DNA from: an uncultured Oscillospiraceae bacterium
GTDB lineage: Bacteria; Bacillota; Clostridia; Oscillospirales; Oscillospiraceae
Reading direction: 5' to 3'
Length of the DNA stretch: 64,000 bases
NCBI GenBank assembly: GCA_944385795.1
Contig: CALWYP010000038.1
Span: 5,774-69,773, forward strand
Shown here: positions 3,348 through 36,525 of the stretch, piece after piece
Numbering within the stretch: the first letter of the stretch is position 1
Layout of the letters: every line of letters starts with the position of its first letter
Notes under the pieces: model-generated
The model's database searches: none
What the model was told of the DNA's origin: nothing
What the model saw: the letters and a program-made list of their open reading frames with translations, nothing else
Program-made: the position numbers and the translations under genes

Positions 3348-3375
3348 GCTATAGAAGCATAATAGAGAGGCTGCT

Positions 3376-5298: not shown

Positions 5299-5322
5299 AA
5301 CAGCGATACATTATGAAACGCA

Positions 5323-5356
5323 GGACAGCCGCCCAATTTTAATTGGGCGGCTGTCC
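5323..5356. terminator. Bidirectional hairpin terminator between convergent genes
   Basis: Perfect inverted repeat GGACAGCCGCCCAATT / AATTGGGCGGCTGTCC with a 2-nt centre. Confidence 0.7.
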
Positions 5357-5448
5357 GAATATGGAGGCAAAATGGTTGCGCACGACGCTTTTTCTTTTTA
5401 ACTTTTAATTATACTTAGCCTGCATCTGTTTAATCACCGCCCCGTCCG

Positions 5449-8364
5449 TCATTCCGCGCCGCGCCGCCGTGCCCCCGCTGCGGAGCTTGCGGTACTGTCC
5501 TCCGGATGGCGTTCGGCATACAGCCTCAGCAATTCCCGCTGGCGCTTTGCGGCGATGGCCGCGTTGTGCCATTTACCGTAGTTGTACTCCTCAAGGCAGG
5601 GCTCCGCCGCGGTTTCCTGTATTCTTCTGGATGCAATAACGTATTCAAGCCGCTTTTCATCCGCGTTGCCAAGCTCTTCTTCGCACGACAGATATAGCTC
5701 CAGCTGTTCGCTTACGTCATACTCGTAGGAGAAATCCCGGAGCCGGCGGAGCAGCATCGCGGCCGCCTTTTCCAGAGCCTCGCGCGACAATTCCGCGTCC
5801 GGGATATTCCGCGCCAGGGCGCGGTACAGCCTGGCTTTCGCGCAGATTTCGCTCTCGTCCAGCCAGGCGTAGGCGAGCGTGCGCTCGCTCTCATCACAGG
5901 CCGCCATATCCGCGCCCAGGCGTCCCAGGCACCAGTTTTTGAGCTCTTCGAGGTGTTCCCGTCCCTCTTCCGGCCCGTTCCGCAGGCGGAAGCTCAGGGA
6001 CGAGAGCATATAGGCGAGCTGCACGGCGCGCCGTCCGGGCTCGAGGGAGCCGAGCAGGCCGCGTATCCCGCCGTTATCCATGCGCCCGCCGGCGGCGAGG
6101 CTGAAGAGCCATCTCGAGCCGAGCAGCCGGACGAAGACGGACTCCGCGCGGGAGGCGGACGCATATAGCGCTTCGTCGAAATCCGAGAAAAGCATGGCCG
6201 CGGCGAGGATGTCGAACATGAGCGGGGAGCGGATTTCATCCAGCAATTTGACGAAGCCCTCGGGATCGAGCGAGAGCATCAGCCGGTAGCCGGAGCTCAA
6301 CCACGCGCCGCCGGGATAGCAGACGTGCCCGGCGTAGTCGTAAAGGAGACGGAAACCAATCACGGAGGGCTTGGCCTCGCCTTTGAGCAGCTTGCGAAGC
6401 TCGAACGTGTCTGAATTCAGCCCCCCGTCCGCGAAGCCTATGCCGGCCTCGCGCGCCCTGGCAATCTCAGCGAACCCGGCGGCGATTTCCCCTGCCGGCA
6501 CGAGGCCGTTTCCGCGGACCGCCTCTTCAAAAACGCCGTGAAGGGTGCAGATCATCTCCGAAGCGAACTCGGCCAGGGCGCGGCAGGCGGCGCCCTTGTC
6601 CCCGTCCCAGTGGCTCAGGATTATGGCGACGGCGCCCTCCAGCTCCGTTTCGCCGACGTCCAGCCGCCCGTTTTCACCGTAATAAGCGGAGAGCCAGCCG
6701 GATTCCCTCAATACGCCGCGCTCGGGCTCAGGGCGCGGCGCTTCCGCGGCGGAGTCGTACAGCACCTCGCAGGTGATCTGGCCGGGCTTTTTCGACCCTG
6801 GTTTAGCGCCGCCGCAGAGACCGCGCAGGTAATCCAATACCTCAAGGCAGACCTCGCGCCCGAGCGGGGCCATGGTGAATGGCTGCCTCGCGCCCATCGA
6901 ATTGAGGGAGTTGCTCATGAGGAAGCCGTCGGCGGAGCCGTCCTTGAAGCGGCGTATGAGGAAGCGGTCGTGAAAAACCTGCGCGTTCCCCCGCCTGAGG
7001 TCGCGTATCCTGAGGTTCTTATGAAGGATGGCGGCGTTGCCGGCGGTGAAACGCCTGACGCCCTCCCTTATCTTCTCGTATTCCACGCTGGAGCCGGTGT
7101 CCGGGTCCATGCCGCCGAGGCTGGAGAGTATCTCGAGCCGTATCTCCGGATGTTCTATGCGGCTGAGCAGCTTGATCGCGGACTCGGCGGAGAAGTACGG
7201 GTCGGCGATTATAACCTTGCTTACGGAGCCGAGGTCTATGTACTCCTTTACCTTCAGGAAGCTGTCGATCTCGCCTCCAACGCCGCCGCCGGGAACAAAA
7301 GCGCCGCGGCTTTCGCCGTCTCTATAGGGCCGCGTGAGCGCGTCTCCCGCGCGCATGGCCGCGTCTATTTCGCCCAGCGCGGGGCTTCTTATTTCGCTCC
7401 TGACGCCGCTGTGGGCGCGGCTCACGCTTTCGACGCTGCGCTTTATCTCGTCCGCCATGCCGGGGGCGGACTTGCGGAGCTTTTTAGTCCAGGGGTCGGA
7501 AAGCCCGAGGCCGGGCTCCATAAGGCTGCCGTTGAGGCTGATGGACATCACCATGGTCATATCGTATCTGTACACCAGCTCCGAGCTCTCCGCGTCCCAG
7601 ATTTGGACGGAAATGCGGCTCATTGGCTCCGCGGCGGTGAAGCGCGCCGACCCTTCCTCCGGCATGAGCAGCTTGCAGCGGTTTATTATAACGCGGCCGC
7701 AGTGCTCGGCGAGGCAGTTCACGATAAGCGGGCGCGGGCAGGGGGCGAGGCGCTTTACCTCGGCCGTTTTCAGCGGCCGCCGGTTGTCGACTTCAACGGC
7801 GAAGCCATCCGGCATCGCCAGCGGCTCAAAGCTCTCGAAGTTGCCCAGCCTGTGGCCGTCCTTGAGCAAATCGACGCCGCTCTCCTCTCTGACCCAGCCG
7901 AAGAGGGCGCGCGCGCCGCGGTACCTTGCGGCTTCGCCGCCGCAGTCCAGGCTGCTTAGGACCTCGTTGAAAAGGCTGTTCTTGTCCAGGCTCCAGAGCT
8001 CCCTGAGCCTTGAACAGCGTTCGAGCGGCCCGCTCTCGCCGGACAGGCTGCCGGCGGAGAAAACCTCCATGCGCGGCGTGAGGCGCGGCGAAGGCAGAGA
8101 GATTTTGCCGCAGCTTATGCGCCCCGGTTCGGTGAGGGCTTTCTCAAAAGCGCCGGCCTCGGCGGCGGACATGATCGCCCGGCATACCGCCCTTCCGTGG
8201 TCTGTGTCGCAGCGCCAGCGCATAGGTTCCCGCCCCGTCCGGGCGCTGAAGCCGTATATGAGCAGATATTCCGCGCCGGCCTTGTGCAGCAGCAGCTTTA
8301 TGAACCTGTTCGTTCCGTCCAAAAACATCCCCTCCAATTTGAGCGCTCGCTTTTTATACAGCAT
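5449..8364 (-). CDS. Large orphan protein (~970 aa) with a central PLD-like (HxR...SxN, MIT_C-like) motif and a helical C-terminal half; function unknown
   Basis: Long minus-strand ORF with normal amino-acid composition. The track start (8481) is probably too far upstream. Candidate starts are ATG 8364 and ATG 8328 (the latter directly preceded by GGAGGGG). Motifs: IIADPYF ... VFHDRFLIRRF(x9)LMSNSLNSMG, with the His codon at 6970..6972. Confidence 0.6.
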   Translation of the reverse strand: MLYKKRALKLEGMFLDGTNRFIKLLLHKAGAEYLLIYGFSARTGREPMRWRCDTDHGRAVCRAIMSAAEAGAFEKALTEPGRISCGKISLPSPRLTPRMEVFSAGSLSGESGPLERCSRLRELWSLDKNSLFNEVLSSLDCGGEAARYRGARALFGWVREESGVDLLKDGHRLGNFESFEPLAMPDGFAVEVDNRRPLKTAEVKRLAPCPRPLIVNCLAEHCGRVIINRCKLLMPEEGSARFTAAEPMSRISVQIWDAESSELVYRYDMTMVMSISLNGSLMEPGLGLSDPWTKKLRKSAPGMADEIKRSVESVSRAHSGVRSEIRSPALGEIDAAMRAGDALTRPYRDGESRGAFVPGGGVGGEIDSFLKVKEYIDLGSVSKVIIADPYFSAESAIKLLSRIEHPEIRLEILSSLGGMDPDTGSSVEYEKIREGVRRFTAGNAAILHKNLRIRDLRRGNAQVFHDRFLIRRFKDGSADGFLMSNSLNSMGARQPFTMAPLGREVCLEVLDYLRGLCGGAKPGSKKPGQITCEVLYDSAAEAPRPEPERGVLRESGWLSAYYGENGRLDVGETELEGAVAIILSHWDGDKGAACRALAEFASEMICTLHGVFEEAVRGNGLVPAGEIAAGFAEIARAREAGIGFADGGLNSDTFELRKLLKGEAKPSVIGFRLLYDYAGHVCYPGGAWLSSGYRLMLSLDPEGFVKLLDEIRSPLMFDILAAAMLFSDFDEALYASASRAESVFVRLLGSRWLFSLAAGGRMDNGGIRGLLGSLEPGRRAVQLAYMLSSLSFRLRNGPEEGREHLEELKNWCLGRLGADMAACDESERTLAYAWLDESEICAKARLYRALARNIPDAELSREALEKAAAMLLRRLRDFSYEYDVSEQLELYLSCEEELGNADEKRLEYVIASRRIQETAAEPCLEEYNYGKWHNAAIAAKRQRELLRLYAERHPEDSTASSAAGARRRGAE

Positions 8365-8796
8365 AGCAAAAAACCGCGGCCCGGGCAAGCGTGCCGCCGG
8401 GGCGCGGGGTATGTTCACGGCGGTTTGCCATGCCGGCGGCCTTTGGGTAAAATGACGGCAATACCCGCAAGGCATATGCATAAAACTTTGTTCGCGGAAT
8501 TAATATTATACAGCTTTAACGCGGGCGCGGGCCGCCGCGCCGGGGGAGCCAGGCCCGAATTTTCCGGGCGGCATGTGTGGGCGTGAAGCGGGACAGAAAA
8601 AACTTTTTCCGGCAGATTTCGCCTCATTTCCCTTTTCTTCGCCGCTTTTGTACATTTTAACGGATGAATTAGTTTTACATAACTGAACAGAAGCAACGTT
8701 ATGGGATTATTTAAGGCGTACATATTCCAGCAGAAAGAAATAATGGAATTAAAAAGCAATTCTTCTTCGTCAATACAATGAAATTTGTTTACCATG

Positions 8797-8836
8797 TGGT
8801 ATAATGTTGAAATTAATCCCCTTGTGATGATATAAT
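8797..8836 (+). promoter_or_regulatory. Two tandem extended -10 promoters upstream of the SLH protein gene
   Basis: TGgTATAAT at 8797..8805. TTGAAA (8807..8812), an 18-nt spacer counted to the TATAAT hexamer at 8831..8836, and the extended -10 TGaTATAAT (8828..8836). Both sit in a markedly AT-rich intergenic region. Confidence 0.5.
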
Positions 8837-8894
8837 TTGTACAAGTCCTCGTGATTTCGAGGGCTGAATTTATATTTACAGGGAGGAAGAGAGG

Positions 8895-10709
8895 ATGAAG
8901 AAAGCGGCTTTCACGGCGCTGGTTATTGTGATTATGGCGGCGCTTCTGGGCGCTGCCCCGGGTAAGTTTGCGGATATAATATGCGACCCACCCAAAGGGA
9001 CCAAGGCCGACATCAATTTTATATTTGTCGATGAAACAGGCAACGAAATCTATTCGGAGCTCAAGGAAGGCGTGGGCGCGTGGAACGCAAATATAAATAT
9101 TAAAGTGAACTCGGGCGAAATTGAAGACGTCGTCCCGACGGTCGGCCGCTTCAACAGCAGCAGCATCGACGGCGCGGAAGCCGTGCTCAGCTTCTCATGC
9201 CCGAACGGAAGCACGGAGACAATATGGATAACGGTCAGCGGGGCGGAGCTCGAAGAAGAGGGACTGCCGCTGGCCGTTTCTGTTTCAGAGGCCAGAAAGA
9301 TGCTGCAGGCCGCGGGCGTGGAGGCCGCGGACGCTCAGATAGAGTCCGTGAGCATGAGCTCCGGGCTGGGCGAAACGGAGTTCGTAAAGAGCGGGGAGAA
9401 TTTCATAGCCGAAATCGGCAAAGCCTTCAACGAGAGCACGACTTTTGAACTCAATATTGCCTATTCCTCGGCCGTAAGGGGGCAAATTACAATACCTTCG
9501 GGGAACGTGTCCGTCCTCACAGCGTTCAGCGGCTGGGAGCTGTTTTCCGCGAAAGAGGTATACGTCGTGAAGTTCGTGGACAGCGTGAGCGTGATCGAAA
9601 CCAGGTACGTCGAAGAGGGCAGCGTGCTCGGCCCGCTGCCGGAATATGAGGCCGAGGGCTTCTCCGGCTGGACCTGTTCGGGCGAGGCTGTGGGCTCCTG
9701 GACCGAGGTAGGCTCAAACATGACCATCGAGGCCGGCTTCAGCGAAGAGGCGGACTCGGAGCTCGTATACATCTCCAACGACGACGGGGAATTCGTCTCG
9801 ATGCTCGAGTCCGAGTTCGGCCCCATAGACGACTACAGCTTCCGGGCGCGCCTGGAGGGCCGCTTCGAACACGGCAACGAGAACTACTATAAGAACGGCT
9901 GGGAAGACGACGGAACGGTCTATATTGTCTATAATTGCGACGCAAACGAGGGCGACAGGGATAAGTACGAAAATAAGTATGTTTCGTATAGAGATTTTAC
10001 GGCTCTGAGAATATATGCAGAGGCAAACGGACAGGAAATAAGTAAAGTGTTGAGCGAAGACGAGCTCTATGTGGACTACAGCGGGGGCGTATGGCAGATC
10101 GCGCTCAAGCCGCGCGCCTTTACCCAGCTGGACACCAGCACGGGCTGGGCCTATATGGACGGGCGGGGCGAGCGGCTGTTCGCGCCCGAGGAGAATATAA
10201 CGAGGGGAGAGGCCTGCGCGATCTTCTTCCGCTGCCTGACGGCGGAGAGCCGCGCCGCGCTGACCCAGCGCGAGCAGTTCGGCGACGTGGACGTGAACGA
10301 CTGGTTCTACGACGCGGTCACCAAGCTCGCGGCTGCCGGCGCGATAGACGGCTGGAACGGCATGTTCGCGCCGGACACGGACATCACGCGCGCGGAGTTC
10401 ACCGCCCTCGCCGTGCGGACGGCCAACATCCAGCCGATCTCCGGGACATATTTCGCCGACGCGGCGGGGCATTGGGCCGAGGGCGAGATTAACGCGGCGG
10501 CGCGGCTGGGCATAATCGGCGGCTATCCCGACGGGAGCTTCCGCCCGGACGCCCGTATAACCCGCGCCGAGGCCGTCACCATCCTCAACGGCATACTCGG
10601 CCGCGAGGGCTCGGTGCCCGGCTGGGCGGCCGCGTGGGACGACGTGCTGCCCGGGGCCTGGTACTTCGCCGACGTGGCCCTCGCCACAACGGGGGAAATG
10701 CGCGAGTGA
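8895..10709 (+). CDS. Secreted cell-surface protein with C-terminal S-layer-homology (SLH) repeats
   Basis: N-terminal signal-like segment MKKAAFTALVIVIMAALLGAAPG. C-terminal SLH-like repeats (FGDVDVNDWFYDAVTKLAAAGAIDG; FADAAGHWAEGEINAAARLGIIGGYPDGSFRPDARITRAEAVTILN). RBS GGGAGGAAGAGAGG. Confidence 0.8.
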   Translation: MKKAAFTALVIVIMAALLGAAPGKFADIICDPPKGTKADINFIFVDETGNEIYSELKEGVGAWNANINIKVNSGEIEDVVPTVGRFNSSSIDGAEAVLSFSCPNGSTETIWITVSGAELEEEGLPLAVSVSEARKMLQAAGVEAADAQIESVSMSSGLGETEFVKSGENFIAEIGKAFNESTTFELNIAYSSAVRGQITIPSGNVSVLTAFSGWELFSAKEVYVVKFVDSVSVIETRYVEEGSVLGPLPEYEAEGFSGWTCSGEAVGSWTEVGSNMTIEAGFSEEADSELVYISNDDGEFVSMLESEFGPIDDYSFRARLEGRFEHGNENYYKNGWEDDGTVYIVYNCDANEGDRDKYENKYVSYRDFTALRIYAEANGQEISKVLSEDELYVDYSGGVWQIALKPRAFTQLDTSTGWAYMDGRGERLFAPEENITRGEACAIFFRCLTAESRAALTQREQFGDVDVNDWFYDAVTKLAAAGAIDGWNGMFAPDTDITRAEFTALAVRTANIQPISGTYFADAAGHWAEGEINAAARLGIIGGYPDGSFRPDARITRAEAVTILNGILGREGSVPGWAAAWDDVLPGAWYFADVALATTGEMRE

Positions 10710-15108: not shown

Positions 15109-16557
15109 TTACAGGCTGTCGCCGAAATCGGCGCGGAACTTGGCGGCGAGCTTTTCCTCCCAATCGCTGGTGGGCTCGAGCCGGCCGAAGAAGAAGCGCA
15201 GGCTGCTCGGCTCCTCGACCCAGCGCAGGCCGCCGACGAGCTCGCGGTTCTCGAACAGCCAGCTTATGCGGTCTACCGCGTAGAGCACCTGGCTCATTGT
15301 GAAGACGCGCCTGGGCATGGCGAGGCGCAGGAGCTCCACGTCGGCGATGGGCTCCGTGCCGTCGGGCTCGCGCTGCTCGCTGAGCGTGCCGCGCTCCATG
15401 CCGCGGATGCCGCCGGCGATGTACACGGCCGCGGCCAGGGCGCCGGCGGGGTACTCGTGGTCGTCGATATGCGGCAGGAACTCGCGCGCGTTGAGGTGGC
15501 AGCCCAGGCCGCCGGCGGGCGTCACGACCGGCACGCCGTGTTTTTGCGGCTCGCGGGTCATGAAGTCGATGAAGATCGGGCCCTGGCTTATGACGTCCTC
15601 GTCCATGGTCTCGTCGAGGCCGACGGTGATGGCCTCCATCTCGCGCACGCTCATGCCGCCGTAGGTGAGGAAGCCCTCGTACATGGGCACCAGCTCGCGC
15701 ATGGCCTCGAAGTGCTTTTTGTCGTGTATCGCGATGCAGCCGCCGCGGGCGAAGCCGAACTTGCGCGCGGAGAAGTAGATGATGTCGAACTCGTCGGCCA
15801 CGGCGCGGGTTATCTCGCGTATGCTCATGCCCTTGCAGGCTTCCTCGCGGGTCTTTATGAAGTAGAGGTTGTCCTGCAGCAGGCTCGCGTCGAGGACGGT
15901 CATGATACCGTTCTCGCGGCAGATCCCGCAGACGTCGCGCATGTTCTGAAGGCTGAGCGGCTGGCCGCCAATGAGGTTCGTGCCGGCCTCGATACGGAGG
16001 AAGGGTATGTGCTCCACGCCGGTGTCGGCGATGAATTTCCTGAGCTTGCCGAGGTCTATGTCGCCCTTGAAGGGGTCGTCGCTCGTGGTCTTTATGCCCT
16101 CGTCCTTGACGAGCTCGGCCACGCTGGCGCCGAGGCGGGTGATATGCGCCTTGGTCGTGGTGAAGTGGAAGTTCATAGGCACCACGTCGCCGGGCTTCAC
16201 AAAGGCGACGGCCAGGATGTTCTCGCAGGCGCGGCCCTGGTGGGCGGGGAGGAGGAAGTCGGTGCCGAAGAGCTCGTGCACCTTCGCCTCGAGCCGGTCG
16301 AAGCTGGCGCTGCCGGCGTAGCTGTCGTCGCATATCAGCATGGCGGCGGTTTGTCGGTCGCTCATGCCGTTTACGCCGGAATCGGTGAGCATGTCGAGGA
16401 AGATGTCCTTGTTCTTGAGCAGGAAGGTGTTGTTCCCAGCCTCCGTGATGGCCTCGAGGCGGCGCTCGACGCTCTGTAGGTTGAGCTTCTGGACCATGCG
16501 CACCTTGTGCAGCTCGAGGGGGATGTCCATACCCGTGAAGAACTTGATGTTTGCCAT
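15109..16557 (-). CDS. tpl: PLP-dependent beta-eliminating lyase, tyrosine phenol-lyase-like (tryptophanase/TPL family)
   Basis: Family-typical blocks FLDMLTDSGVNGMSD, PAHQGRACEN, GGQPLSL and SARK (PLP Lys context). It has FTTT and LRFF where, as I recall them, tryptophanases have FDTT and LRHF. This favours TPL over tryptophanase. Confidence 0.7.
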   Translation of the reverse strand: MANIKFFTGMDIPLELHKVRMVQKLNLQSVERRLEAITEAGNNTFLLKNKDIFLDMLTDSGVNGMSDRQTAAMLICDDSYAGSASFDRLEAKVHELFGTDFLLPAHQGRACENILAVAFVKPGDVVPMNFHFTTTKAHITRLGASVAELVKDEGIKTTSDDPFKGDIDLGKLRKFIADTGVEHIPFLRIEAGTNLIGGQPLSLQNMRDVCGICRENGIMTVLDASLLQDNLYFIKTREEACKGMSIREITRAVADEFDIIYFSARKFGFARGGCIAIHDKKHFEAMRELVPMYEGFLTYGGMSVREMEAITVGLDETMDEDVISQGPIFIDFMTREPQKHGVPVVTPAGGLGCHLNAREFLPHIDDHEYPAGALAAAVYIAGGIRGMERGTLSEQREPDGTEPIADVELLRLAMPRRVFTMSQVLYAVDRISWLFENRELVGGLRWVEEPSSLRFFFGRLEPTSDWEEKLAAKFRADFGDSL

Positions 16558-16619
16558 GATTTTTAGCTCCTTCTTTTTTAGTCTTGGAGGAGCCGTTTGG
16601 CGGCGGTCCCACCGGGTTT

Positions 16620-16925
16620 TGAGGAAAAGAAAAACGCCCTTCCTCTCAATAGAGGACGAGCGCCAAATCCCGTGTTACCACCTCAGTTCGCCGTCACCTC
16701 ACGATAACGGCCTTTTCGAGTGCGTCGGCAAAAGCCGAGATACTCTATCTCTGTAACGGGAGAAGCCCGGCCCGGCCTACCGGCGCTGACGCGCTTTCGT
16801 GGAGCGGCTCGTGCGTGTATTCCCGGGGCGGTCCTGATGCCTCGCAGCAACCGGCACTTCTCTGAAGGTCCCGTTACCCGGTACTATTCCGCAGTCACAG
16901 CCGTTGGCCTGTGTGAACTTGCTTT
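16620..16925 (-). promoter_or_regulatory. T-box riboswitch leader, probable Tyr (UAC) specifier
   Basis: Minus strand features: AG-bulge/distal-loop block AGAGAAGUGCCGGUUGCUGCGAGGCA. Specifier-type internal loop with AGUA opposite GAA-UAC-A (UAC at 16819..16817). T-box sequence GAGGUGGUAACACGG (16671..16686). Terminator UCCUCU-AUUG-AGAGGA plus a U-run (about 16625..16664). Confidence 0.75.
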
Positions 16926-16927
16926 GA

Positions 16928-16956
16928 ATTATAATCTCGCCGCTTTAAATTGTCAA
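16928..16956 (-). promoter_or_regulatory. Consensus sigma-A promoter driving the T-box leader
   Basis: TTGACA (16956..16951), a 17-nt spacer, then TATAAT (16933..16928) on the minus strand. Confidence 0.75.
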
Positions 16957-17008: not shown

Positions 17009-17473
17009 TCACAGCCCGCCCTCCGTCAGCTCGGCCAGCAGGCCGGCGAGGCCCTCGCTCAAATCGTCCCAGGTGGCGCGGAAATCCCCCGTGTACCAGG
17101 GGTCGGCCACCTGCTGCCCGGAGCGGCCGCAGTGGTCGAGCAGTAGGGAGATCTTCCCCTCCGGGTCCCCGCCGGAGAGGCGGCGCAGGTTGCGCAGGTT
17201 CTCGTTGTCCATGCAGATTATAAGGTCATATTGGTCATACTCCGCGCGCGCCATGCGGTGCGCCGCGTGCCCCGCGCAGCCTATCCCGTGCGCGGCGAGC
17301 TCCCGCCGGGCGGGCGGGTAGACGGGGTTGCCGAGCTCCTCCGAGCTGGTGGCCGCCGAGCGTATGTAGAACCTCCCGCCGGCGCCGGCCTTTTTGACCA
17401 TGTCCTTGAACATAAATTCCGCCATAGGCGAGCGGCAGATGTTGCCGTGGCAGACGAATAAAACTTTTATCAT
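17009..17473 (-). CDS. Low-molecular-weight protein-tyrosine phosphatase
   Basis: N-terminal P-loop VCHGNICRSPMAE (CX5R-S) and a C-terminal DPWY-type Asp loop (VADPWYTGD). Confidence 0.85.
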   Translation of the reverse strand: MIKVLFVCHGNICRSPMAEFMFKDMVKKAGAGGRFYIRSAATSSEELGNPVYPPARRELAAHGIGCAGHAAHRMARAEYDQYDLIICMDNENLRNLRRLSGGDPEGKISLLLDHCGRSGQQVADPWYTGDFRATWDDLSEGLAGLLAELTEGGL

Positions 17474-17629: not shown

Positions 17630-18214
17630 TTACTTTTTGGGGTAGTGTATCACCATCACGGCGCGAGTTAGGGCGTCGGAGGCGCTGCGGTATGTATGCG
17701 GCTGATCCCCGCGGTAGTGTATGGCCGAGCCTCGAGGAACCGTATAGCGTTCGCGCCCCGCGCTCCCGAGGGTTATCTCTAGCGCGCCCTGATACACAAG
17801 CACGAACTCCTCCGTGCCATCGGCGTGGGCGCTGCTGTCCGAAACCGAGCCGGGGTCGAGCTCAAGATCGAGCATCTCAAAGTCCCGCCCGGGCCGAACC
17901 TTAAATATGGGATAGAGCCTGAAATGCCCCCTGTCGTTGAGCAGCGGGGTCATATCTGCCTCATTTACTATAGTGATGCCCTGCTCGCTGCGCTCCATGA
18001 GCGATGTAAAGGACACGTTGAGCCCGGTTGCGATTTTCCAGAGCGTTGAAATGGTTGGGCTGGATTCCCCGCGCTCTATCTGCCCGAGCATGCTTTTGCT
18101 TACCCCGGTGCGCTCGGAAACCTCGCCAAGGCTCAGCTGCGCCTGCGCGCGCAGGGCGCGAAGGTTTTCGGCAATAACGCGGTTCATATCCGTGGCTTCT
18201 TCTATATTGGGCAT
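17630..18214 (-). CDS. XRE-family HTH transcriptional regulator with a C-terminal cupin sensor domain
   Basis: HTH segment LSLGEVSERTGVSKSMLGQIERGESSPTISTLWKIA, followed by a cupin-like beta region (EEFVLVYQGALEI ... IHYRGDQPHTY). RBS GGAGGG lies 9 nt upstream. Confidence 0.8.
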   Translation of the reverse strand: MPNIEEATDMNRVIAENLRALRAQAQLSLGEVSERTGVSKSMLGQIERGESSPTISTLWKIATGLNVSFTSLMERSEQGITIVNEADMTPLLNDRGHFRLYPIFKVRPGRDFEMLDLELDPGSVSDSSAHADGTEEFVLVYQGALEITLGSAGRERYTVPRGSAIHYRGDQPHTYRSASDALTRAVMVIHYPKK

Positions 18215-18384: not shown

Positions 18385-18431
18385 ATTACAAGCGCAGGAT
18401 TACATTCAGCTTTAAAGAAAGGATGACAGGC

Positions 18432-20801
18432 ATGATCACTGAGCGTATCGAGAAGATCCGTCAGAACTATGTTAACGCGAAGCCGCAGATATCCTATGAG
18501 CGCGCGCTTATATGGACCGAGTCCTATAAGAGCACCGAGGGCAAGCCGGCTTGTATACGCGCCGCCAAGGCCTTCTATGACTGCTGCGACCGCCTGGGAG
18601 TGCACATTTTCGAGGGCGAGCTGGTTGTCGGCGCAATCGGCGAATTCCGCAAATGCGGCATACTTACGCCTGAGTTCTCCTGGATGTGGGTTGACCGCGA
18701 GATGGACAATTTTGCGACCAGGCCGCAGGATCCGTACGTCATGACGGATGAGCAGCGTGCCTTCGTCCGCGAAAACATTTTCCCCTACTGGAAGGGCAAG
18801 AGCCTTGAGGAGGCCTTCCTCGCCCGCCTGCCCGAGGATACGCGGCGCGTCGGAGTCGACACCGGCGTCATAGACAGCGACTCCAAGTGGAGGCAGGCCG
18901 TGGGCGAAATAACGCCTGACTACCAGGACGTCCTCTTCAAGAAGGGCTTCGGCGGGATTATGCGCGAGGCCGAGGAGCACATCGCCGCCCTCGACATTTC
19001 CAAGCCCGAGGACGAGGATAAGCGCGACTTCTACGAATCCGTGATCTGGGCCTGCCGCGGTATCATCCGTATTGCCGGGCGCTATGCCGACGAGGCCGAG
19101 CGCCTGGCCTCCGAAGAGGCCGACGCTGTGCGCGCCGGCGAGCTGCGCACCATAGCCGCGGTCTGCCGCGCCGTGCCGGCCAACCCGCCGCGCAGCTTCC
19201 GCGAAGCCATCCAGTTCGTGTGGTTCACCCAGCTCGGCGGCATACTGTCCGAGAACCCGCTCGCGCTTAACCCCGGCCGCTTTGACCAGTATATGGACCC
19301 CTACTACGAGGCGGACCTTGCCGCCGGCAGCATCACCGCCGACGAGGCCCAGGAGCTTATCGACGCCCTCTGGCTCAAGTACTCCGAATGGGTCTGGACC
19401 ATTTCCGCCAACACCGCCGACTATTTCGCGGGCTACAACCAGTTCCAGAACCTGACCGTCGGCGGCAAGACGCGCGACGGCAAGGACGGAACCAACGCCG
19501 TCACCTATATGGCCCTCAAGGCGACCGAGGAGGTCAAAACTCATCAGCCGGGCCTTTCCGTGCGCGTCCACGCCGACTGCCCGAGGGATTTCCTCGACGC
19601 CGTTACTCATCTTGTCAGCAAGGGCACCGGCTTCCCGGCCATCCACAGCGACAGCGTCGGCTACCAGATGCTGCTCAACCTCGGATATTCCCCCGACGAC
19701 GCCCGCGACTGGAGCAACTGCGGCTGCGTGGTGCCCCACTCGCGCAAGACCGGCGAGTGGACCAGCGCCGCCAATCTCAATTTCGGCTCCGCGCTGGAGT
19801 ACGCCCTCAACGAGGGCCGCTCGCTCATGACCGGCGAGCTGATGGGCCTTGAGACGCCTCCCGCCGCCGAATACGCCGGCTTTGAGGCCGTCAAGCAGGC
19901 TTTCTACAGCCAGTTTGACAACCTCTGCCGCCACGCGGTCATCTCCCTCGTGACCGCCCAGAGGGTCCACCGCGAGATGGTCCCCCGCCCCTTCCTCTCC
20001 GCCTGCAACGAGCACTGCATGGAGAGCGGCACCGACCTGAGCCACGGCGGCGCCAAGTATAACATCGGGCCCGTCATCACCGGCATCGGCCTGGCTGTTG
20101 TCGCCAATTCCCTCGCCGCCATAAAGAAGCTGGTCTTCGAGGACAAGGCTTGCAGCATGGCGGAGCTCGTCGCCGCCCTGCGCGCCAACTGGGAGGGCTA
20201 TGACGAGCTGCGCGCTCTGGCGCAGGCCTGCCCGAAGTACGGCAACGACGACGACTACGTCGACTCCATAGCGCAGGAGGTCTCCAACCACTATTACCAT
20301 GAGGTGCACCAGTACAAGGACATCTTTGGCAACCCCTTCACCACCGCCTTCATGGGTATCTCCAACTACATCCCCATGGGCCGCGTGCTCGGCGCCACTC
20401 CCGACGGGCGCAAGAACGGCGAGCCCTCCAGCGAGGGCGTGAGCCCCTTCGTCGGCACGGATAAGTCCACCCCGCTCGCCGCCATGCGCTCCACCGCCAA
20501 GATGAACCAGGAAATCCACTCCGGCGGCACGCTGCTGAATCTCAGGCTTAACCCAGAGCTCGTGGCCACCAAGCGCGGCCAATCCAACCTCGGCGCGATG
20601 ATTCAGACGCTCTTCTCCCTCGGCGGCTTCCATGTGCAGTTCAACTGCATTTCCTCCGACATACTGCGCGACGCGCAGAAGCACCCCGAGAACTATCGGG
20701 ACCTCCTCGTGCGCGTGGCCGGCTATTCGACCCAGTTCGTAAACCTGTCCAGGTCCATGCAGGACGCCATCATCGCGCGTACCGAGCACAGCGGCTTCTG
20801 A
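18432..20801 (+). CDS. Glycyl radical enzyme of the PFL2 (dehydratase/lyase) type, substrate unknown
   Basis: C-terminal glycyl radical motif RVAGYSTQF (Gly codon 20721..20723). Cys loop WSNCGCVVPH (Cys 19725..19727). Size (~790 aa) and N-terminus are typical of PFL2-type GREs. The second ATG (18432) has better RBS spacing than 18423. Confidence 0.85.
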   Translation: MITERIEKIRQNYVNAKPQISYERALIWTESYKSTEGKPACIRAAKAFYDCCDRLGVHIFEGELVVGAIGEFRKCGILTPEFSWMWVDREMDNFATRPQDPYVMTDEQRAFVRENIFPYWKGKSLEEAFLARLPEDTRRVGVDTGVIDSDSKWRQAVGEITPDYQDVLFKKGFGGIMREAEEHIAALDISKPEDEDKRDFYESVIWACRGIIRIAGRYADEAERLASEEADAVRAGELRTIAAVCRAVPANPPRSFREAIQFVWFTQLGGILSENPLALNPGRFDQYMDPYYEADLAAGSITADEAQELIDALWLKYSEWVWTISANTADYFAGYNQFQNLTVGGKTRDGKDGTNAVTYMALKATEEVKTHQPGLSVRVHADCPRDFLDAVTHLVSKGTGFPAIHSDSVGYQMLLNLGYSPDDARDWSNCGCVVPHSRKTGEWTSAANLNFGSALEYALNEGRSLMTGELMGLETPPAAEYAGFEAVKQAFYSQFDNLCRHAVISLVTAQRVHREMVPRPFLSACNEHCMESGTDLSHGGAKYNIGPVITGIGLAVVANSLAAIKKLVFEDKACSMAELVAALRANWEGYDELRALAQACPKYGNDDDYVDSIAQEVSNHYYHEVHQYKDIFGNPFTTAFMGISNYIPMGRVLGATPDGRKNGEPSSEGVSPFVGTDKSTPLAAMRSTAKMNQEIHSGGTLLNLRLNPELVATKRGQSNLGAMIQTLFSLGGFHVQFNCISSDILRDAQKHPENYRDLLVRVAGYSTQFVNLSRSMQDAIIARTEHSGF

Positions 20802-20868
20802 TAAACTAAAACGCGGGCGGCCGCAGGCTTTTGCGGCCGCCTTTAATTAAAATTTGGAGGAAAGAGCT

Positions 20869-21609
20869 ATGGGCGGATATATTATGCAGCTTCAGGACTT
20901 TTCGGTCAACGACGGCGAGGGCATACGCACGATCGTCTTTATGGCCGGCTGCCCCCTGCGCTGCGCGTGGTGCTCCAACCCCGAAGGCCAGACCCTGCGC
21001 AATCCCATGACACGATGGGCAGAGGCCGGGGAGATAATCGGACACATAAGGCACCAGGAGATATTTTACCGCAGTTCCGGCGGCGGGGTGACATTCTCCG
21101 GCGGCGAAGCCACGGCCCAGCCGGACTTCCTCGCGGAGCTTGTGAACGAGCTCTACGACGAGGGCTTCAACCTCGCCATTGAGACCTGCGGCTTTTTCGA
21201 CTTTGAAAGGATCAGGCCCTTGCTGATGAAGATGGAGCGTATCTTCATGGACCTCAAGTGCCTGGACGCCGGACGCCACCGCGCCTTCACCGGCGCGGAT
21301 AACGGCCTTATACTCGAGAACCTGTCCAGGACAGCCGCGCTCGGCGTGCCTATGACCATACGGATCCCCACCATCCTCGGAGTTAACGCCGCGGACGACG
21401 ACATGGCTGCGGCCTTCGACTTCATTGCCGGCTCCTGCCGCGGCGCCAGCCTCGAGCTGCTGCCTTATCACAGGTACGGCGAGGCAAAATACGCCCAGCT
21501 CGGCCTCGAAGCCCCCGGCAGCGAGTTCGGCACCCCGGCTCCCGAGCAGATCGAGCGCTGGCTTGGCATGGCCCGTGAACGGGGGATTGAGACCGTGTCC
21601 TTCAAATGA
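20869..21609 (+). CDS. Glycyl-radical-enzyme activating enzyme (radical SAM), short PflA-like form
   Basis: CX3CX2C motif GCPLRCAWCSNPE and GGE motif TFSGGEAT. There are no additional ferredoxin-type Cys clusters. ATG 20869 follows GGAGG by 8 nt. The track start 20854 is a TTG. Confidence 0.85.
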   Translation: MGGYIMQLQDFSVNDGEGIRTIVFMAGCPLRCAWCSNPEGQTLRNPMTRWAEAGEIIGHIRHQEIFYRSSGGGVTFSGGEATAQPDFLAELVNELYDEGFNLAIETCGFFDFERIRPLLMKMERIFMDLKCLDAGRHRAFTGADNGLILENLSRTAALGVPMTIRIPTILGVNAADDDMAAAFDFIAGSCRGASLELLPYHRYGEAKYAQLGLEAPGSEFGTPAPEQIERWLGMARERGIETVSFK

Positions 21610-22964
21610 ATATGGATACCAGCAACACGAGGAGTGGCTTTATGCGGATGGCCGTCGTCCTGCCTAAGACGCAGGTGGAAATTTATTACCAGAGGTTTAC
21701 CGCCGTATTTGAAAATGAATTCAGTGAAATAGAAGTTGAATACATATTTTACAAGGATTATAAGGAGGCCCCGGGCCTGATAAAAGACAGGCAGCGGGAC
21801 TTTGACGCGATTATTTTCGCGGGGTCGGCGTCGTATTTCTACACCGAGAGCCAGCTCAAGCAGGAGACAATCTGGCTGTATCTCCCGCGCGAGGGCAGCG
21901 CCATCTATCGCGCGCTGCTGCTCGCCTACCGGCGGGGCTGGGACATAACCAGGCTGAGCTTTGACACCTATGAGCCTGACATGCTCAGGGAGGCTTATGA
22001 GGAGCTGGGTTACGACGCGGCGAGCTTAAATATACACCTGTGCAAGGGAAACCTGCGCAGCCCCGATTATAACCGCTTCGTGCTGGACTTCCACCAGGGC
22101 CTGCTGTCCAGCGGCCGCGTCAGCGGCTGCATAACGCGGCTGACCACCGTGGCCAATATGATGGAGACTCAGGGGATACCCTATATCTTCGCGCATCCCA
22201 CCATCGACACCGTGCGCGAGCAGGTTTCCTTCGCCCAGAAGCTGGCCGTGGCAAGGCGCGACTGCTGGGGGCAAATTGCCGTGCTGCTGGTGAACGTAGC
22301 TATGCCCCTCGACTACTCCGTGCTTGTCTCGGCGGACTACTCCATTGAAATGGACCGCCTGCGCATGGCGAACCATGTACACCGTTTTGCAAACCTTATC
22401 CGCGGCATGGCGATGGAACAGGGCACGAGCGCGTACGTCATAGTGTCCACGATGGACCTGCTTGAGGCGCAGACAGAGGTTTACAGGAGCCTGCCGCTTA
22501 TAGACTGGCTGGAAAAGGAGTGCCCCTACACCATTTCCGTAGGGATAGGCTGCGGCGAGTCGGTGTACGAAGCGCACCGCATGGCGGCGCTGGCCCTGCG
22601 CAAGTGCACGCAGAGGAAAAGGAGCTCCGCTTATGTCCAATTCCCGGACGGCACGGGGCTCTTCATACGCCGCGGCGGATCGGTCACCGCGGAACGCAGC
22701 GCCATGGACGAATGGCAGGAAACCGCGGTCGCCAGCGGTCTGAGCGTCAGTACAATCTACCGTCTTGCGGAACTAATAAACAGAAAACAGACCGATACCA
22801 TGACCGCGCAGGAGATAGCCGACGGCCTGCACATCAACCGCCGCAGCGCCGACCGCCTGATAGAAAAGCTGGAGTCGGCCGGCCGGGCGTCCGTCACCGG
22901 ACGCGAGCTCTCCGGGAAGAAGGGCCGGCCGGCGCGTATAGTCCAACTGTTCCTAAAGCTCTGA
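21606..22964 (+). CDS. Putative transcriptional regulator of unknown family (large N-terminal sensor-like region, C-terminal HTH)
   Basis: The start overlaps the activase stop (ATGA). The C-terminal HTH-like segments are LSVSTIYRLAELI and MTAQEIADGLHINRRSADRLIEKLE. I recognise no enzymatic motif. Confidence 0.5.
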   Translation: MNMDTSNTRSGFMRMAVVLPKTQVEIYYQRFTAVFENEFSEIEVEYIFYKDYKEAPGLIKDRQRDFDAIIFAGSASYFYTESQLKQETIWLYLPREGSAIYRALLLAYRRGWDITRLSFDTYEPDMLREAYEELGYDAASLNIHLCKGNLRSPDYNRFVLDFHQGLLSSGRVSGCITRLTTVANMMETQGIPYIFAHPTIDTVREQVSFAQKLAVARRDCWGQIAVLLVNVAMPLDYSVLVSADYSIEMDRLRMANHVHRFANLIRGMAMEQGTSAYVIVSTMDLLEAQTEVYRSLPLIDWLEKECPYTISVGIGCGESVYEAHRMAALALRKCTQRKRSSAYVQFPDGTGLFIRRGGSVTAERSAMDEWQETAVASGLSVSTIYRLAELINRKQTDTMTAQEIADGLHINRRSADRLIEKLESAGRASVTGRELSGKKGRPARIVQLFLKL

Positions 22965-22976
22965 ATACCTTCCAAC

Positions 22977-23013
22977 AAATCCCGCCGGGGCACACGCGCC
23001 GGCGGGATTTTTT
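22977..23013 (+). terminator. Rho-independent terminator ending the GRE-activase-regulator unit
   Basis: AAATCCCGCCGG ... CCGGCGGGATTT hairpin followed by additional T residues. Confidence 0.75.
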
Positions 23014-23199
23014 CGTCGTATTAAACAAGAACCATGTGGATGAATTGACAAAATTCCCAAATAATTTTTGGACTAATTATGGGCCTATTTCGGCATCGGC
23101 CCGTGCGTTATTTTGTTCTCAAAGAAGAGCGCCGTTTGCACAAAGCCGGCTGCGTTCTCAGGCGGGCGATAGTGCGCCAAGCTCAAAGGGGGAGCCAAA

Positions 23200-23907
23200 A
23201 TGTCACAAGATCAGTTCCAGACTGTAATAAACAGCCCGTGGATGTGGCTGGCCTGCGGCGTAATGGTGCTTATAGTCATAGCGCAGTCGGTCGTATATCT
23301 AAGAGGGGCGCTGAGGGAAGCGGACCGCCTTGGCATAGAAGCCAAAAGGCGGCATGGCGCAATACGCTCCGCCTGCATAAGCGCGGTGGGCCCGTCGCTT
23401 TCCCCGGTCATAATCGCGCTGAGCATGATTACGATAATCGGCGCGCCGAACACCTGGCTGTATCTCAACAACGTTGGCGCGGCCCGCACGGAGCTCGCAA
23501 CGGTGGCCATAGGGGCGGAATTTGCCGGCGTGTTTGAGCTTGGCGACAACATCGGCATGAGCGCGCTCAGCTGCGCCATGTGGGCCTGCGCGCTAAACGG
23601 CGTGGGCTGGATGATAGTGGTATTCTTCCTCAACCACCGTATGCAGCGGATTTCCGACGCGCTGTACGCAAAATTCGACCGGGCGCTAGTGAGCGCGCTC
23701 ATGGGCGCGGCGGTTACCAGCCTCTTCTGTTATCTGCTGGGCAACCAGCTCGTAAGCGGGAACTGGAGGCACTATCTTGCGGCGGCGATATCCGGCGGCT
23801 GTATGCTGCTGCTTGGATACATATGCAAAGGGCACGGCGTGCTGCAGGAAATTTCACTTGGCGTCTCAATGCTGGCAGGTATGCTGCTCACGCAGCTTGT
23901 GGCGTAA
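23200..23907 (+). CDS. Integral membrane protein, paralog A of a tandem pair (possibly DUF5058-like; family assignment uncertain)
   Basis: 235 aa, multi-TM. Clearly homologous to the next gene (shared blocks INSP..W, LRG.L.EA..LGI.A.RR...IRSACI...GPSL.PV, GAARTEL, FFL.HRM, AAAISG). RBS GGGGGAG. Confidence 0.6.
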   Translation: MSQDQFQTVINSPWMWLACGVMVLIVIAQSVVYLRGALREADRLGIEAKRRHGAIRSACISAVGPSLSPVIIALSMITIIGAPNTWLYLNNVGAARTELATVAIGAEFAGVFELGDNIGMSALSCAMWACALNGVGWMIVVFFLNHRMQRISDALYAKFDRALVSALMGAAVTSLFCYLLGNQLVSGNWRHYLAAAISGGCMLLLGYICKGHGVLQEISLGVSMLAGMLLTQLVA

Positions 23908-23942
23908 GCCAATATTAAGCCTGAAAAAGAGGAGGAGAAAAA

Positions 23943-24644
23943 ATGGACTTCCAAGAAATCATCAACAGTCCGATATTGTGGGTCCTGTCAGGCCTTATGG
24001 TAGTGGCCAGCGTGGTGCAGGCAATAGTGTTCCTGCGCGGGTCGCTCAAAGAGGCCAACAAGCTCGGAATCGACGCGTCGCGCCGCAAGGCGAGCATACG
24101 AAGCGCGTGCATAACCTCGCTGGGCCCCTCCCTGGCGCCGGTAGTCAGCGTGCTCGCGCTCATGGCCGTTATCGGCGGGCCGACCACCTGGATGCGCCTG
24201 TGCGACGTCGGCGCCGCGCGTACCGAGCTCGGCGTCGTCTCGCTCATGGCTAACCTCACGGGGGCCGAGGTCGGCGGCGAGAGCTTCGGCATCCAGAGCT
24301 TCGCCTACTCGCTCTGGGGCATGGCGCTCAACAACTTCGGCTGGCTGGCCATAGTGTTCTTCCTCGTCCACCGCATGGACAAGGTCGTCGTCTGGATGGA
24401 CAAGAAGTACGACCCCAAGTGGATAAAGGTTCTTATGGGCGCGGCCACCATGAGCATGTTCGCCTACCTGCTGAGCAATCAGCTCTACAAGTTTAACTGG
24501 AACAACTGGGCCGCGGCGGCCATCAGCGGCGCTTCAATGCTGATCATAGGCTCCGCGTTCAAAAAGCACCAGAGGCTGCAGGAGCTGGCACTCGGCCTCT
24601 CGCTAATCATCGGTATGCTGGCCACCCAGGCCATATTTGGCTGA
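23943..24644 (+). CDS. Integral membrane protein, paralog B of the tandem pair
   Basis: 233 aa, collinear with 23200..23907 over its full length. RBS GAGGAGGAG. Confidence 0.6.
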   Translation: MDFQEIINSPILWVLSGLMVVASVVQAIVFLRGSLKEANKLGIDASRRKASIRSACITSLGPSLAPVVSVLALMAVIGGPTTWMRLCDVGAARTELGVVSLMANLTGAEVGGESFGIQSFAYSLWGMALNNFGWLAIVFFLVHRMDKVVVWMDKKYDPKWIKVLMGAATMSMFAYLLSNQLYKFNWNNWAAAAISGASMLIIGSAFKKHQRLQELALGLSLIIGMLATQAIFG

Positions 24645-24668
24645 ACGCCCGGATAAGGAGGCAGTAAA

Positions 24669-25331
24669 ATGTCATACAATTCTTCCGTCATCCGCAACGG
24701 CCGCATAACCATGGGCCTTGCGATTATAGCGAACTTCATCCCCGCCATCTATGTCGGCTTCGCCTACGACGTTATGCCGCCCATCGGCGTGCTGTTCCAG
24801 ATTTGGGGCGTCGTCGCGGCGAGCTACGGCATCACCTGGATAATCCAGCCCATAGCCTATTATCCCACGATGGGCACCGCCGGCTCCTATATCGGCTGGC
24901 TGGCCGGCAGCTGCGGCGACATACGCATGCCCGCCGCCGCAATGGCCCAGAAGGTGGCCCGCGTTGAGGCCGGCACGCACGAGGGCGACGTTATAGGCAC
25001 TATCGGCGTGGCCTGCTCCGTGCTCGTATCCGCATCTATGGTCACCCTCTTCGTACTTATCGGCACCCAGGTCATCCCCCTGCTGCCCGAGTTCATCACC
25101 GAGTCCTTCAGCTACATACTGCCCGCGCTCTTCGGCGCCATCTTTGTCGACAACGCCCGCAAGAACCTCAAGGCCGGTATACTCACCCTGGTCTGCGGCA
25201 TGCTTATCCTCCACTTCGGCACCATGATAGGCATCAACAGCGGAATCCTGACCCTGCTCATCGTCGTGCTGGGCATACTCATCACCCGCGTCTTCTTCGT
25301 CGCCGACAAGAAAAAGGCCGCCAAGGAATAA
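24669..25331 (+). CDS. Integral membrane protein of unknown function (third component of the putative transporter)
   Basis: 220 aa, hydrophobic, with a conserved-looking loop GSCGDIRMPAAAMAQKV. RBS AAGGAGG. Only a 24-nt gap separates it from the previous gene. Confidence 0.55.
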   Translation: MSYNSSVIRNGRITMGLAIIANFIPAIYVGFAYDVMPPIGVLFQIWGVVAASYGITWIIQPIAYYPTMGTAGSYIGWLAGSCGDIRMPAAAMAQKVARVEAGTHEGDVIGTIGVACSVLVSASMVTLFVLIGTQVIPLLPEFITESFSYILPALFGAIFVDNARKNLKAGILTLVCGMLILHFGTMIGINSGILTLLIVVLGILITRVFFVADKKKAAKE

Positions 25332-25346
25332 GGAGGACATGGATAT

Positions 25347-29006: not shown

Positions 29007-29020
29007 GGAGGCCGAGAACT

Positions 29021-30064: not shown

Positions 30065-30105
30065 AAAGGGCTTGCCGCCTGTCATTCACAGGCGGCAAGC
30101 CCTTT
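30065..30105. terminator. Bidirectional terminator between the oxidoreductase operon and the convergent GH2 gene
   Basis: AAAGGGCTTGCCGCCTGT-CATTC-ACAGGCGGCAAGCCCTTT perfect hairpin. Confidence 0.8.
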
Positions 30106-30176
30106 GGCTTTGCCCTGACTATGCGGATATTGCGGCGAAGTCAGCTCGCAGCGCCGGGTGGCGCCGCGGGCGCGCG

Positions 30177-31889: not shown

Positions 31890-32077
31890 ACCGGCGCCTC
31901 CTTAACTTCAGTCTTCTATATATTCTACACTAACTTCGCCCTCTTGCAAAGACGGAAATGCCGCCTCGTCACTATGCACAATGCGATAGTTAATTAACAA
32001 GCAGCTTTCGACGCGAAAACTGTAAAATTGTTAACACAATGACAGATAAATAGCATAGATTAACATTTATTATGCAC

Positions 32078-35191: not shown

Positions 35192-35205
35192 AGGAGGGGC
35201 GCTAA

Positions 35206-36512: not shown

Positions 36513-36525
36513 GGAGGCCTGAGCC

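Follow-up and report, generated by a model that had tools for sequence, protein, structure and literature searches.

Why would an RNA that responds to a shortage of tyrosine be placed in front of a gene for an enzyme of the tyrosine phenol-lyase (TPL) type, a group known for the breakdown of tyrosine? The question is raised by a locus on the minus strand of a 64,000-nt stretch of contig CALWYP010000038.1 (GCA_944385795.1, positions 5,774 to 69,773) from an uncultured Oscillospiraceae bacterium. This whole stretch is referred to as the window, and coordinates are those of the window unless another locus is named. An earlier reading of its letters, hereafter the original prediction, had described a tyrosine-specific T-box riboswitch upstream of a TPL-like gene and had suggested, as one of two options, that the enzyme works in the synthetic or salvage direction during tyrosine starvation; the other was an unexpected regulatory logic of microbial phenol production. 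The leader is almost certainly a T-box(Tyr) ON-switch, and its association with the lyase is not a one-off: the lyase is a regulon member of the tyrosine T-box that is conserved in Clostridia as well as in Bacilli. The explanation favoured as a whole, a T-box(Tyr)-controlled TPL-like enzyme in tyrosine-forming phenol salvage, is given a probability of roughly 0.55.

In a search with the Rfam covariance model (CM) RF00230, the region upstream of the lyase gene matched the entire model (positions 1-219 of 219) at 86.7 bits, with E-values of 1.8e-19 in a 551-nt search and of 2.1e-17 for both strands of the 64-kb window. The gathering score of this Rfam family is 93 bits. A default Rfam scan at gathering scores reported no T-box, only a tRNA, and the T-box was seen only with E-value reporting of RF00230. 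The shortfall of the window leader is a matter of GC-rich insertions; no module is missing. The complete minus-strand leader claimed by the original prediction, including a Stem I block of AG bulge and distal loop, a tyrosine specifier, a T-box sequence and a terminator with U-run, could be retraced part by part:

16907-16649, minus strand: full-length T-box leader (Stem I, Stem II, IIA/B, Stem III, antiterminator), match to RF00230
16901-16807, minus strand: Stem I with K-turn region, specifier loop, AG bulge and distal loop, from the CM alignment
16863-16859, minus strand: AG bulge AGAGA, read directly
16852-16841, minus strand: distal loop GGUUGCUGCGAG, read directly
16819-16817, minus strand: specifier codon UAC (Tyr), in the loop G-A-A-UAC-A opposite AGUA, from the CM alignment
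16684-16652, minus strand: antiterminator helix holding the T-box sequence, from the CM alignment and a fold of 16690-16645
16682-16670, minus strand: T-box core GGUGGUAACACGG, inside the antiterminator
16680-16677, minus strand: UGGU bulge, in the T-box core
16664-16625, minus strand: intrinsic terminator, a hairpin at 16664-16633 followed by the U-run UUUUUCUUUU

The CM alignment also contains Stem II with an S-turn, a IIA/B element ending in CCGUUA, and Stem III. The terminator hairpin folds at -18.4 kcal/mol (z = -3.0); it was revealed by folding and was not detected by a simple terminator scanner, as its stem has one mismatch. Its 5' arm, CGCUCGUCCUC, is according to the folding also the 3' strand of the antiterminator, and because this segment is common to both, the two structures are mutually exclusive.

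The tyrosine specificity was judged from two sites. The specifier loop has the expected layout (AGUA/GAA S-turn, codon, following purine), and the CM alignment places UAC in the codon slot of the window leader as well as in the leaders of two distant relatives, L127 and L153. At the other end of the RNA, the UGGU bulge would pair with a 3'-ACCA end and therefore with a tRNA carrying the discriminator base A73, which is that of bacterial tRNA-Tyr. Both marks of a Tyr-specific T-box, UAC in the slot and a bulge matching A73, are hence found in the window leader, and the assignments of the original prediction held at both sites; neither of the RNA results that it had named as refuting, a lack of a significant RF00230 match or a non-Tyr codon in the specifier, occurred. 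No tRNA-Tyr gene is located within the 64-kb window. The founding Tyr-specific T-box is the tyrS leader of Bacillus subtilis. Similar to this RNA, the window leader has a UAC specifier loop, AG bulge, distal loop, Stem II, IIA/B and Stem III, and an antiterminator with a UGGN bulge in competition with an intrinsic terminator, the arrangement being ON with uncharged tRNA-Tyr. In contrast to tyrS, which encodes the tyrosyl-tRNA synthetase, the window leader controls a lyase-family enzyme, and the GC-rich lyase leaders carry the insertions that put them under the Rfam gathering score.

By its architecture, the leader belongs to the canonical transcriptional T-boxes of class I and is specific for tRNA-Tyr(GUA), presumably acting by tRNA-dependent antitermination. 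With sufficient tyrosine, it would fold as the terminator and transcription would stop before the lyase gene. When tyrosine becomes scarce, the anticodon of uncharged tRNA-Tyr(GUA) would pair with UAC in the specifier loop of Stem I, the tRNA elbow would dock on the platform of AG bulge and distal loop, and the free 3'-ACCA end would pair with UGGU, stabilizing the antiterminator and permitting readthrough and synthesis of the enzyme. Charged tRNA-Tyr would be unable to make the ACCA/UGGU contact, leaving the terminator to form.

The original prediction had raised the occurrence of such T-box/lyase pairs in other genomes, and they proved frequent. The 80 best loci encoding the lyase protein were inspected for the T-box core pattern GGUGGUA-N-C-N-CG upstream of the gene. 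It was present 97-227 nt 5' of the start codon in 43 of the 80, corresponding to 43 of the 46 assessable loci with a Firmicutes label (two loci without upstream sequence were left out of the assessment). The carriers were labelled Oscillospiraceae/'Ca. Scatomorpha', Christensenellaceae, Miniphocaeibacter, Clostridia or Bacillota, and the closest relatives of the window protein, with up to 94% identity, belong to Oscillospiraceae/'Ca. Scatomorpha'. The specifier region reads (G/A)AAUAC and the bulge UGGU in all 43 genome leaders, and a terminator hairpin with U-run overlapping the antiterminator was recognized in 41 of them. Outside this survey, the pair was found in L127, a low-GC Firmicute from a fermentation metagenome (protein 66% identical to that of the window, leader 139.7 bits), and in L153, a Bacilli-type member (62%, 112.3 bits).

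The structure of the leader is conserved beyond its sequence. Across 36 non-identical Stem I regions aligned with MAFFT, the motifs AAUAC and AGAGA and the G/U positions of the distal loop were invariant, while the helices varied. RNAalifold, run on these 36 leaders with no prior structure, predicted 17 Stem I pairs, of which 14 showed compensatory changes, and put G-AAUAC-R into an internal loop, on its 3' side, with a helix at either end. Stem I cells were paired in 94.9%, compared with 27-48% when the partners were slid by 1-3 columns, and none of 500 shuffles reached the observed values. Among diverse leaders tested with Rfam, all 13 were full-length T-boxes: seven lay above the gathering score (93.2-124.8 bits), and the other six (L014, L015, L033, L037, L052 and L077), which are GC-rich, obtained 51.8-87 bits with E-values from 1e-8 to 1e-17. 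Altogether, 7 of the 16 leaders of the lyase gene scored with RF00230 were under the gathering score, the window leader included. The association of leader and lyase is unseen by standard pipelines because default Rfam annotation misses leaders of such scores. The E-values establish that the leader is more than a chance resemblance, as does the recurrence of the leader-lyase pairing, with compensatory base changes, in over 45 further lineages; this conservation argues for maintenance of the pairing by selection.

The lyase protein itself retains 70-75% identity across Firmicutes, Spirochaetes, Bacteroidales, Opitutales and other gut or digester phyla in the 80-locus survey, which implies that horizontal transfer was extensive, that the constraint is very strong, or both. 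Whether the T-box link predates the core family was asked in a metagenome search with P0128, a distant homolog of the window protein. The search yielded an archaeal branch without leaders, and only two Firmicute contigs, L127 and L128, were informative.

The regulated gene encodes a PLP (pyridoxal 5'-phosphate)-dependent beta-eliminating lyase of 482 amino acid residues (PF01212 Beta_elim_lyase, 145.4 bits at a cut-off of 27, E = 3e-42). It affiliates with the NCBIfam subfamily NF009709, named 'tryptophanase' (556.7 bits, cut-off 285), and falls short of all three equivalog families: TIGR02618 for TPL (414.1 versus 720.7 bits) and, for the tryptophanase TnaA, TIGR02617 (305.8 versus 825.8 bits) and NF053783 (375.9 versus 750 bits). 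Its best matches among solved structures in the PDB are TPLs, with 39-40% identity to the TPL of Citrobacter freundii, compared with 33% to Escherichia coli TnaA. An exact look-up of the protein sequence returned no record, and no characterized member of its clade was found in a literature search.

Residues were mapped by alignment with the C. freundii TPL, whose numbering is used here, and with E. coli TnaA. The original prediction had noted Thr (in FTTT) and Phe (in LRFF) at positions where tryptophanases have Asp and His; alignment to the actual sequences confirmed this. Thr124, Arg381 and Phe448 are those of the C. freundii TPL, whereas E. coli TnaA has the indole-specifying residues Asp137, Ile396 and His463 at these places. 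The catalytic and substrate residues Tyr71, Thr124, Asn185, Asp214, Lys257 (the PLP lysine), Arg381, Arg404, Phe448 and Phe449 are kept, and Phe36, Arg100, Phe123 and Met379 are also conserved with TPL. All contacts to the para-hydroxyl group and the ring (Phe36, Phe123, Thr124, Met379, Arg381, Phe448 and Phe449) are identical to TPL. TPL-type chemistry on tyrosine or phenol is accordingly suggested by the pocket and appears likely. The surroundings of the cofactor differ: throughout the clade, the PLP site deviates from both TPL and TnaA by Arg217->Leu, Lys256->Arg, Asp258->Leu/Phe and His343->Leu. The family is further distinguished by Met288->Phe, an N-terminus longer by about nine residues and a conserved tail of about 22 amino acids at the C-terminus.

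The phylogenetic placement is in line with the residue pattern. An exhaustive search of 1.84 billion representatives retrieved 459 superfamily members at E <= 1e-30, the full-length members of which were used for a neighbour-joining tree and a residue table. The window protein, P0033, P0083, P0121 (Bacilli, 62% identity) and P0128 (47%) formed a monophyletic clade, sister to canonical TPL (C. freundii, Vibrio, Gaiellaceae, candidate phyla radiation) and well apart from the TnaA radiation. P0128, the deepest member, originates from Desulfurococcales/Acidilobaceae archaea; because of it the clade spans both prokaryotic domains, its range comprising Firmicutes, Spirochaetes, Bacteroidales and Desulfurococcales archaea. 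The source names within the clade are mostly 'tryptophanase' and in a few cases tyrosine phenol-lyase. None of the canonical TPL representatives in the set had a Firmicute label. By this placement the enzyme is not a TPL in the canonical sense, nor is it a tryptophanase, and it can be described as a member of a TPL sister clade. Of the identity given in the original prediction, the TPL-type substrate pocket thus stands and the assignment to TPL proper does not.

Compared with the known enzymes, the window protein shares with TPL (EC 4.1.99.2; C. freundii and Erwinia herbicola; PDB: 2EZ1, 1TPL) the PF01212 fold, the active-site residues and the sister-group position, and differs from it by the low identity, the PLP-site changes, the N-terminal extension and the C-terminal tail. 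With E. coli TnaA (EC 4.1.99.1) it shares the superfamily and the overall active-site scaffold. Control of TnaA is exerted by the TnaC leader peptide, which senses free tryptophan, in contrast to the T-box on the window gene.

Two further groups were noticed in the superfamily. P0160 and P0302 (Thermoprotei archaeon) form a separate archaeal lineage in which a tryptophanase-type Asp124 occurs together with Leu217 and Arg256, the cofactor-site signature of the T-box-linked clade. P0160 had been considered as a tryptophan-type counterpart on account of this combination and was dismissed, being archaeal and located outside the clade in the tree; the lineage suggests either that the signature had more than one origin or that it is an ancestral trait in archaea. 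Another set of proteins (P0122-P0127, P0129, P0131-P0132, P0134-P0136 and P0140) of about 850-930 aa has two tandem beta-eliminating-lyase matches, with 31-37% identity to the query, and apparently consists of double lyases formed by fusion.

What purpose might such a lyase serve under a tyrosine T-box? T-box regulons in general consist of tRNA synthetases, biosynthetic genes and transporters (PMC2494555; PMC3766115 supplements). For tyrosine, the published tables list tyrS/tyrZ, the NhaC and tyrT transporters, tyrA and aro genes, and phhA for the conversion of phenylalanine to tyrosine (PMC2494555; PMC3766115 supplements); the regulon content given in the original prediction (tyrS, aromatic biosynthesis, transporters, no lyase) agrees with these tables, with phhA in addition. 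All these genes serve the supply of tyrosine. Canonical TPL is catabolic and is induced by L-tyrosine via TyrR (PMC10170061), opposite in sign to the window gene with its predicted induction by tyrosine starvation. A tyrosine-forming role is therefore favoured for the latter, since tyrosine starvation would switch the gene on. The reaction has a basis in the known chemistry, as canonical TPL also catalyzes the reverse reaction and the formation of tyrosine from serine and phenol (PMC10170061). In the window bacterium, tyrosine may be formed from environmental phenol, either with pyruvate and ammonium by reverse elimination or with serine by beta-replacement, and the remodelled cofactor environment may suit the enzyme to the synthetic direction. 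From the regulatory logic and the active-site match, we regard tyrosine formation as the physiological role at about even odds. More tentative, and a little short of even, is the view that the whole clade consists of dedicated 'tyrosine synthases', derived from TPL, remodelled at the cofactor (Leu217, Arg256, Leu343) and making tyrosine from exogenous phenol.

A similar logic is known from other T-box genes. The tryptophan T-box in Clostridia often controls a stand-alone trpB2 (PMC3766115 supplements), whose product condenses indole and serine. Both this T-box(Trp) trpB2 (indole + serine to tryptophan) and T-box(Tyr) phhA of the B. cereus group (phenylalanine to tyrosine) represent a single-step salvage or conversion to the cognate amino acid, as proposed here for phenol to tyrosine. 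The enzyme families are unrelated, however, and the salvage reaction of the lyase clade is putative.

Several observations weigh against tyrosine-forming salvage. The score of the window leader is about 6 bits under the RF00230 gathering score. The T-box core was absent at three Firmicutes-labelled loci (two Pseudoflavonifractor isolates and one Bacillota) and at all Spirochaete, Bacteroidales, Opitutales and other non-Firmicute loci of the 80-locus survey, and because of these the regulatory clue covers only part of the enzyme family. The residue changes around the PLP could reflect another reaction or another substrate. In its reverse reaction, canonical TPL has Km values of 12 mM for pyruvate, 20 mM for NH3 and 1.1 mM for phenol (PMC10170061); because these are high, salvage at environmental phenol levels would need a better-adapted enzyme. 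Lastly, neither conserved partners nor aromatic-pathway genes were found near the lyase in the contexts examined from Firmicutes, Spirochaetes and Archaea.

Four other explanations were considered. That the leader is a decayed T-box or resembles one by chance, or that its specifier is not that of tyrosine, could be argued from the low score and from the motif AAUAC, which holds overlapping codons such as AUA (Ile) and AAU (Asn) in the other registers. A match with E = 2e-17 over the full model, homologous leaders of up to 139.7 bits and covarying helices do not fit a decayed or accidental RNA, and three independent CM alignments agree on UAC in the codon slot. UGGU implies A73, as in tRNA-Tyr, whereas tRNA-Asn has G73. 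Moreover, the lyase has, independently of the RNA, a tyrosine/phenol pocket. This explanation is extremely improbable, and scarcely less so is that of a true, indole-producing tryptophanase, as the databases annotate the protein. The latter draws on the 557-bit match to the 'tryptophanase' subfamily NF009709 and on the agreement of most source names. It conflicts with both TnaA equivalog cut-offs, which the protein misses, with the replacement of Asp137, Ile396 and His463 by Thr, Arg and Phe, and with the clustering of the protein with TPL away from the TnaA radiation; the leader, moreover, reads tRNA-Tyr and not tRNA-Trp.

The two remaining explanations accept both the tyrosine T-box and the TPL-like pocket, and each is considered unlikely. 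The enzyme may be a catabolic, phenol-producing TPL under a T-box of unconventional logic: the leader might be a relic duplicated from tyrS, or might serve as a general starvation signal, with tyrosine from peptides as a source of pyruvate and ammonia. Its active site is TPL-like, all characterized TPLs are catabolic in vivo, and many lineages have the enzyme family without T-boxes. Inducing the destruction of tyrosine when tRNA-Tyr is uncharged would, however, be self-defeating, and an invariant UAC and covariation, kept across Clostridia and Bacilli with proteins only 62-66% identical to that of the window, argue for selection. Furthermore, no degradative enzyme occurs in the published T-box regulons examined, and known gut phenol producers carry TPLs 70-99% identical to that of C. 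freundii, not members of the window clade (PMC6424909). Alternatively, the substrate may be a tyrosine analogue or another phenolic amino acid (m-tyrosine, L-3,4-dihydroxyphenylalanine (L-DOPA), halogenated tyrosines), or the phenol pocket may be used for a different beta-substitution. A T-box senses the charging ratio and not tyrosine itself, and an enzyme of this kind would clear competitors of the tyrosyl-tRNA synthetase that cause uncharged tRNA-Tyr to accumulate. Leu217, Arg256, Leu343 and Phe288 near the cofactor do set the clade apart from every characterized TPL, and TPLs accept many substituted phenols (PMC10170061); the para-hydroxyl and ring contacts, on the other hand, are identical to TPL, the T-box regulon tables examined hold no precedent for detoxification, and the proposal is speculative. 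Against these alternatives, the supply of tyrosine from phenol is the explanation we prefer.

The RNA itself is an ordinary tyrosine T-box and needs no new mechanism. What is new is the class of gene controlled, the distinct and widespread sister clade of TPL, and the implied reversal of the physiological role. Full-text literature contained nothing relevant on a T-box paired with a tryptophanase or TPL, a mention in the major T-box reviews not being excluded, and the regulon tables (PMC2494555 and PMC3766115 supplements) listed no gene of the TPL/tryptophanase type. T-box specifiers are reliable predictors of function because the genes they control supply the cognate amino acid, and a conserved tyrosine T-box before a TPL-like enzyme is strong, assay-independent evidence that the whole clade serves the supply of tyrosine. 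If salvage is confirmed, it would correspond for tyrosine to what TrpB2 does for tryptophan by salvaging indole, and in guts and anaerobic digesters phenol would be cross-fed as a nutrient and not be only a waste product or toxin. The 'tryptophanase' annotations, which number in the thousands in Clostridia, Spirochaetes, Bacteroidales and Desulfurococcales, would then predict production of neither indole nor phenol. Phenol is the precursor of the uremic toxin phenyl sulfate. Inference of microbiome indole or phenol formation from such homologs would miscount, possibly with the wrong sign, as the carriers would be phenol consumers and not producers. For the biocatalysis of tyrosine, L-DOPA and non-canonical amino acids, which currently relies on catabolic TPLs and engineered TrpB, a synthetic-direction enzyme with Leu217/Arg256/Leu343 and hyperthermophilic archaeal members would be of interest.

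The lyase transcription unit is monocistronic. Its remaining elements were located as follows:

16956-16928, minus strand: sigma-70-type promoter, TTGACA at 16956-16951, 17-nt spacer and TATAAT at 16933-16928, matching the consensus at 12/12 positions
16567..16570, minus strand: ribosome-binding site GGAG, 9 nt 5' of the ATG, read directly
16557-15109, minus strand: lyase open reading frame (ORF) of 482 aa, a PLP-dependent beta-eliminating lyase with its ATG at 16557 (PF01212)
15080-15055, minus strand: perfect 11-bp GC-rich hairpin GGGCCCGCGGC-CGAU-GCCGCGGGCCC, 29 nt past the lyase stop, read directly
14973-14945, minus strand: own promoter of the next gene, from the promoter scan

The promoter is the TTGACA-17-TATAAT element described in the original prediction. 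In the promoter scan, three promoter-like sites were found in the region, compared with 0.6 expected from shuffles. The leader extends over about 370 nt between promoter and ribosome-binding site. The 11-bp hairpin, a putative terminator with a weak U-run, is probably the 3' end of the transcript.

The annotation of the rest of the window contained no tyrA, aro or tyrS genes. A gene for a low-molecular-weight phosphotyrosine phosphatase (17009-17473, minus strand) lies directly 5' of the T-box promoter on the same strand. A functional link between this gene and the lyase was rejected, as the pairing was not seen in the other contexts examined, and its position is probably coincidental. Beyond it, a helix-turn-helix (HTH)-cupin regulator (17630-18214, minus strand) is divergent from a glycyl-radical enzyme resembling pyruvate formate-lyase (18423-20801, plus strand) and its activase (20854-21609, plus strand). 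The glycyl-radical enzyme is under every NCBIfam equivalog cut-off (CutC, HypD, sulfopropanediol dehydratase, 4-hydroxyphenylacetate (HPA) and indoleacetate decarboxylases), and a link to the lyase was rejected on this ground, the cut-off for HPA decarboxylase being among those missed.

Two other lyase loci have neighbours of note. In the Miniphocaeibacter metagenome-assembled genome L027, a yjdF-type azaaromatic riboswitch (RF01764, 67.3 bits; L027 positions 6941-7035, minus strand) is encoded on the opposite strand, about 500 nt 3' of the lyase gene with its T-box, a second RNA sensing aromatic compounds at that place. At the spirochaete-type locus L084 (positions 3291-9673), which has no T-box, the lyase has as neighbours a divergent ABC transporter, whose binding protein is of the PF04392 (TrpX) type, and, on its 3' side, an M20 peptidase. 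These flanks could hint at scavenging of aromatic amino acids or peptides; the arrangement is not conserved elsewhere.

In the remainder of the window, a cluster at 21606-26528 comprises genes for a protein of 452 aa that matches HTH_11 weakly at its C-terminus, for a tandem pair of DUF5058 proteins (23200-23907, 23943-24644) and for an M20 peptidase (25347-26528), together with a 220-aa ORF without Pfam match. Two large ORFs, at 5449-8481 (minus strand, 1010 aa) and 30072-31997 (plus strand, 641 aa), have no Pfam match and may be real orphan genes or shadow ORFs of the GC-rich DNA. Two subunits of a 2-oxoacid:ferredoxin oxidoreductase (27828-29953) and a complete Rnf operon (rnfCDGEAB-like, 32200-37344) fit a ferredoxin-based fermentative host of the Oscillospiraceae, 'Ca. 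Scatomorpha'-like.

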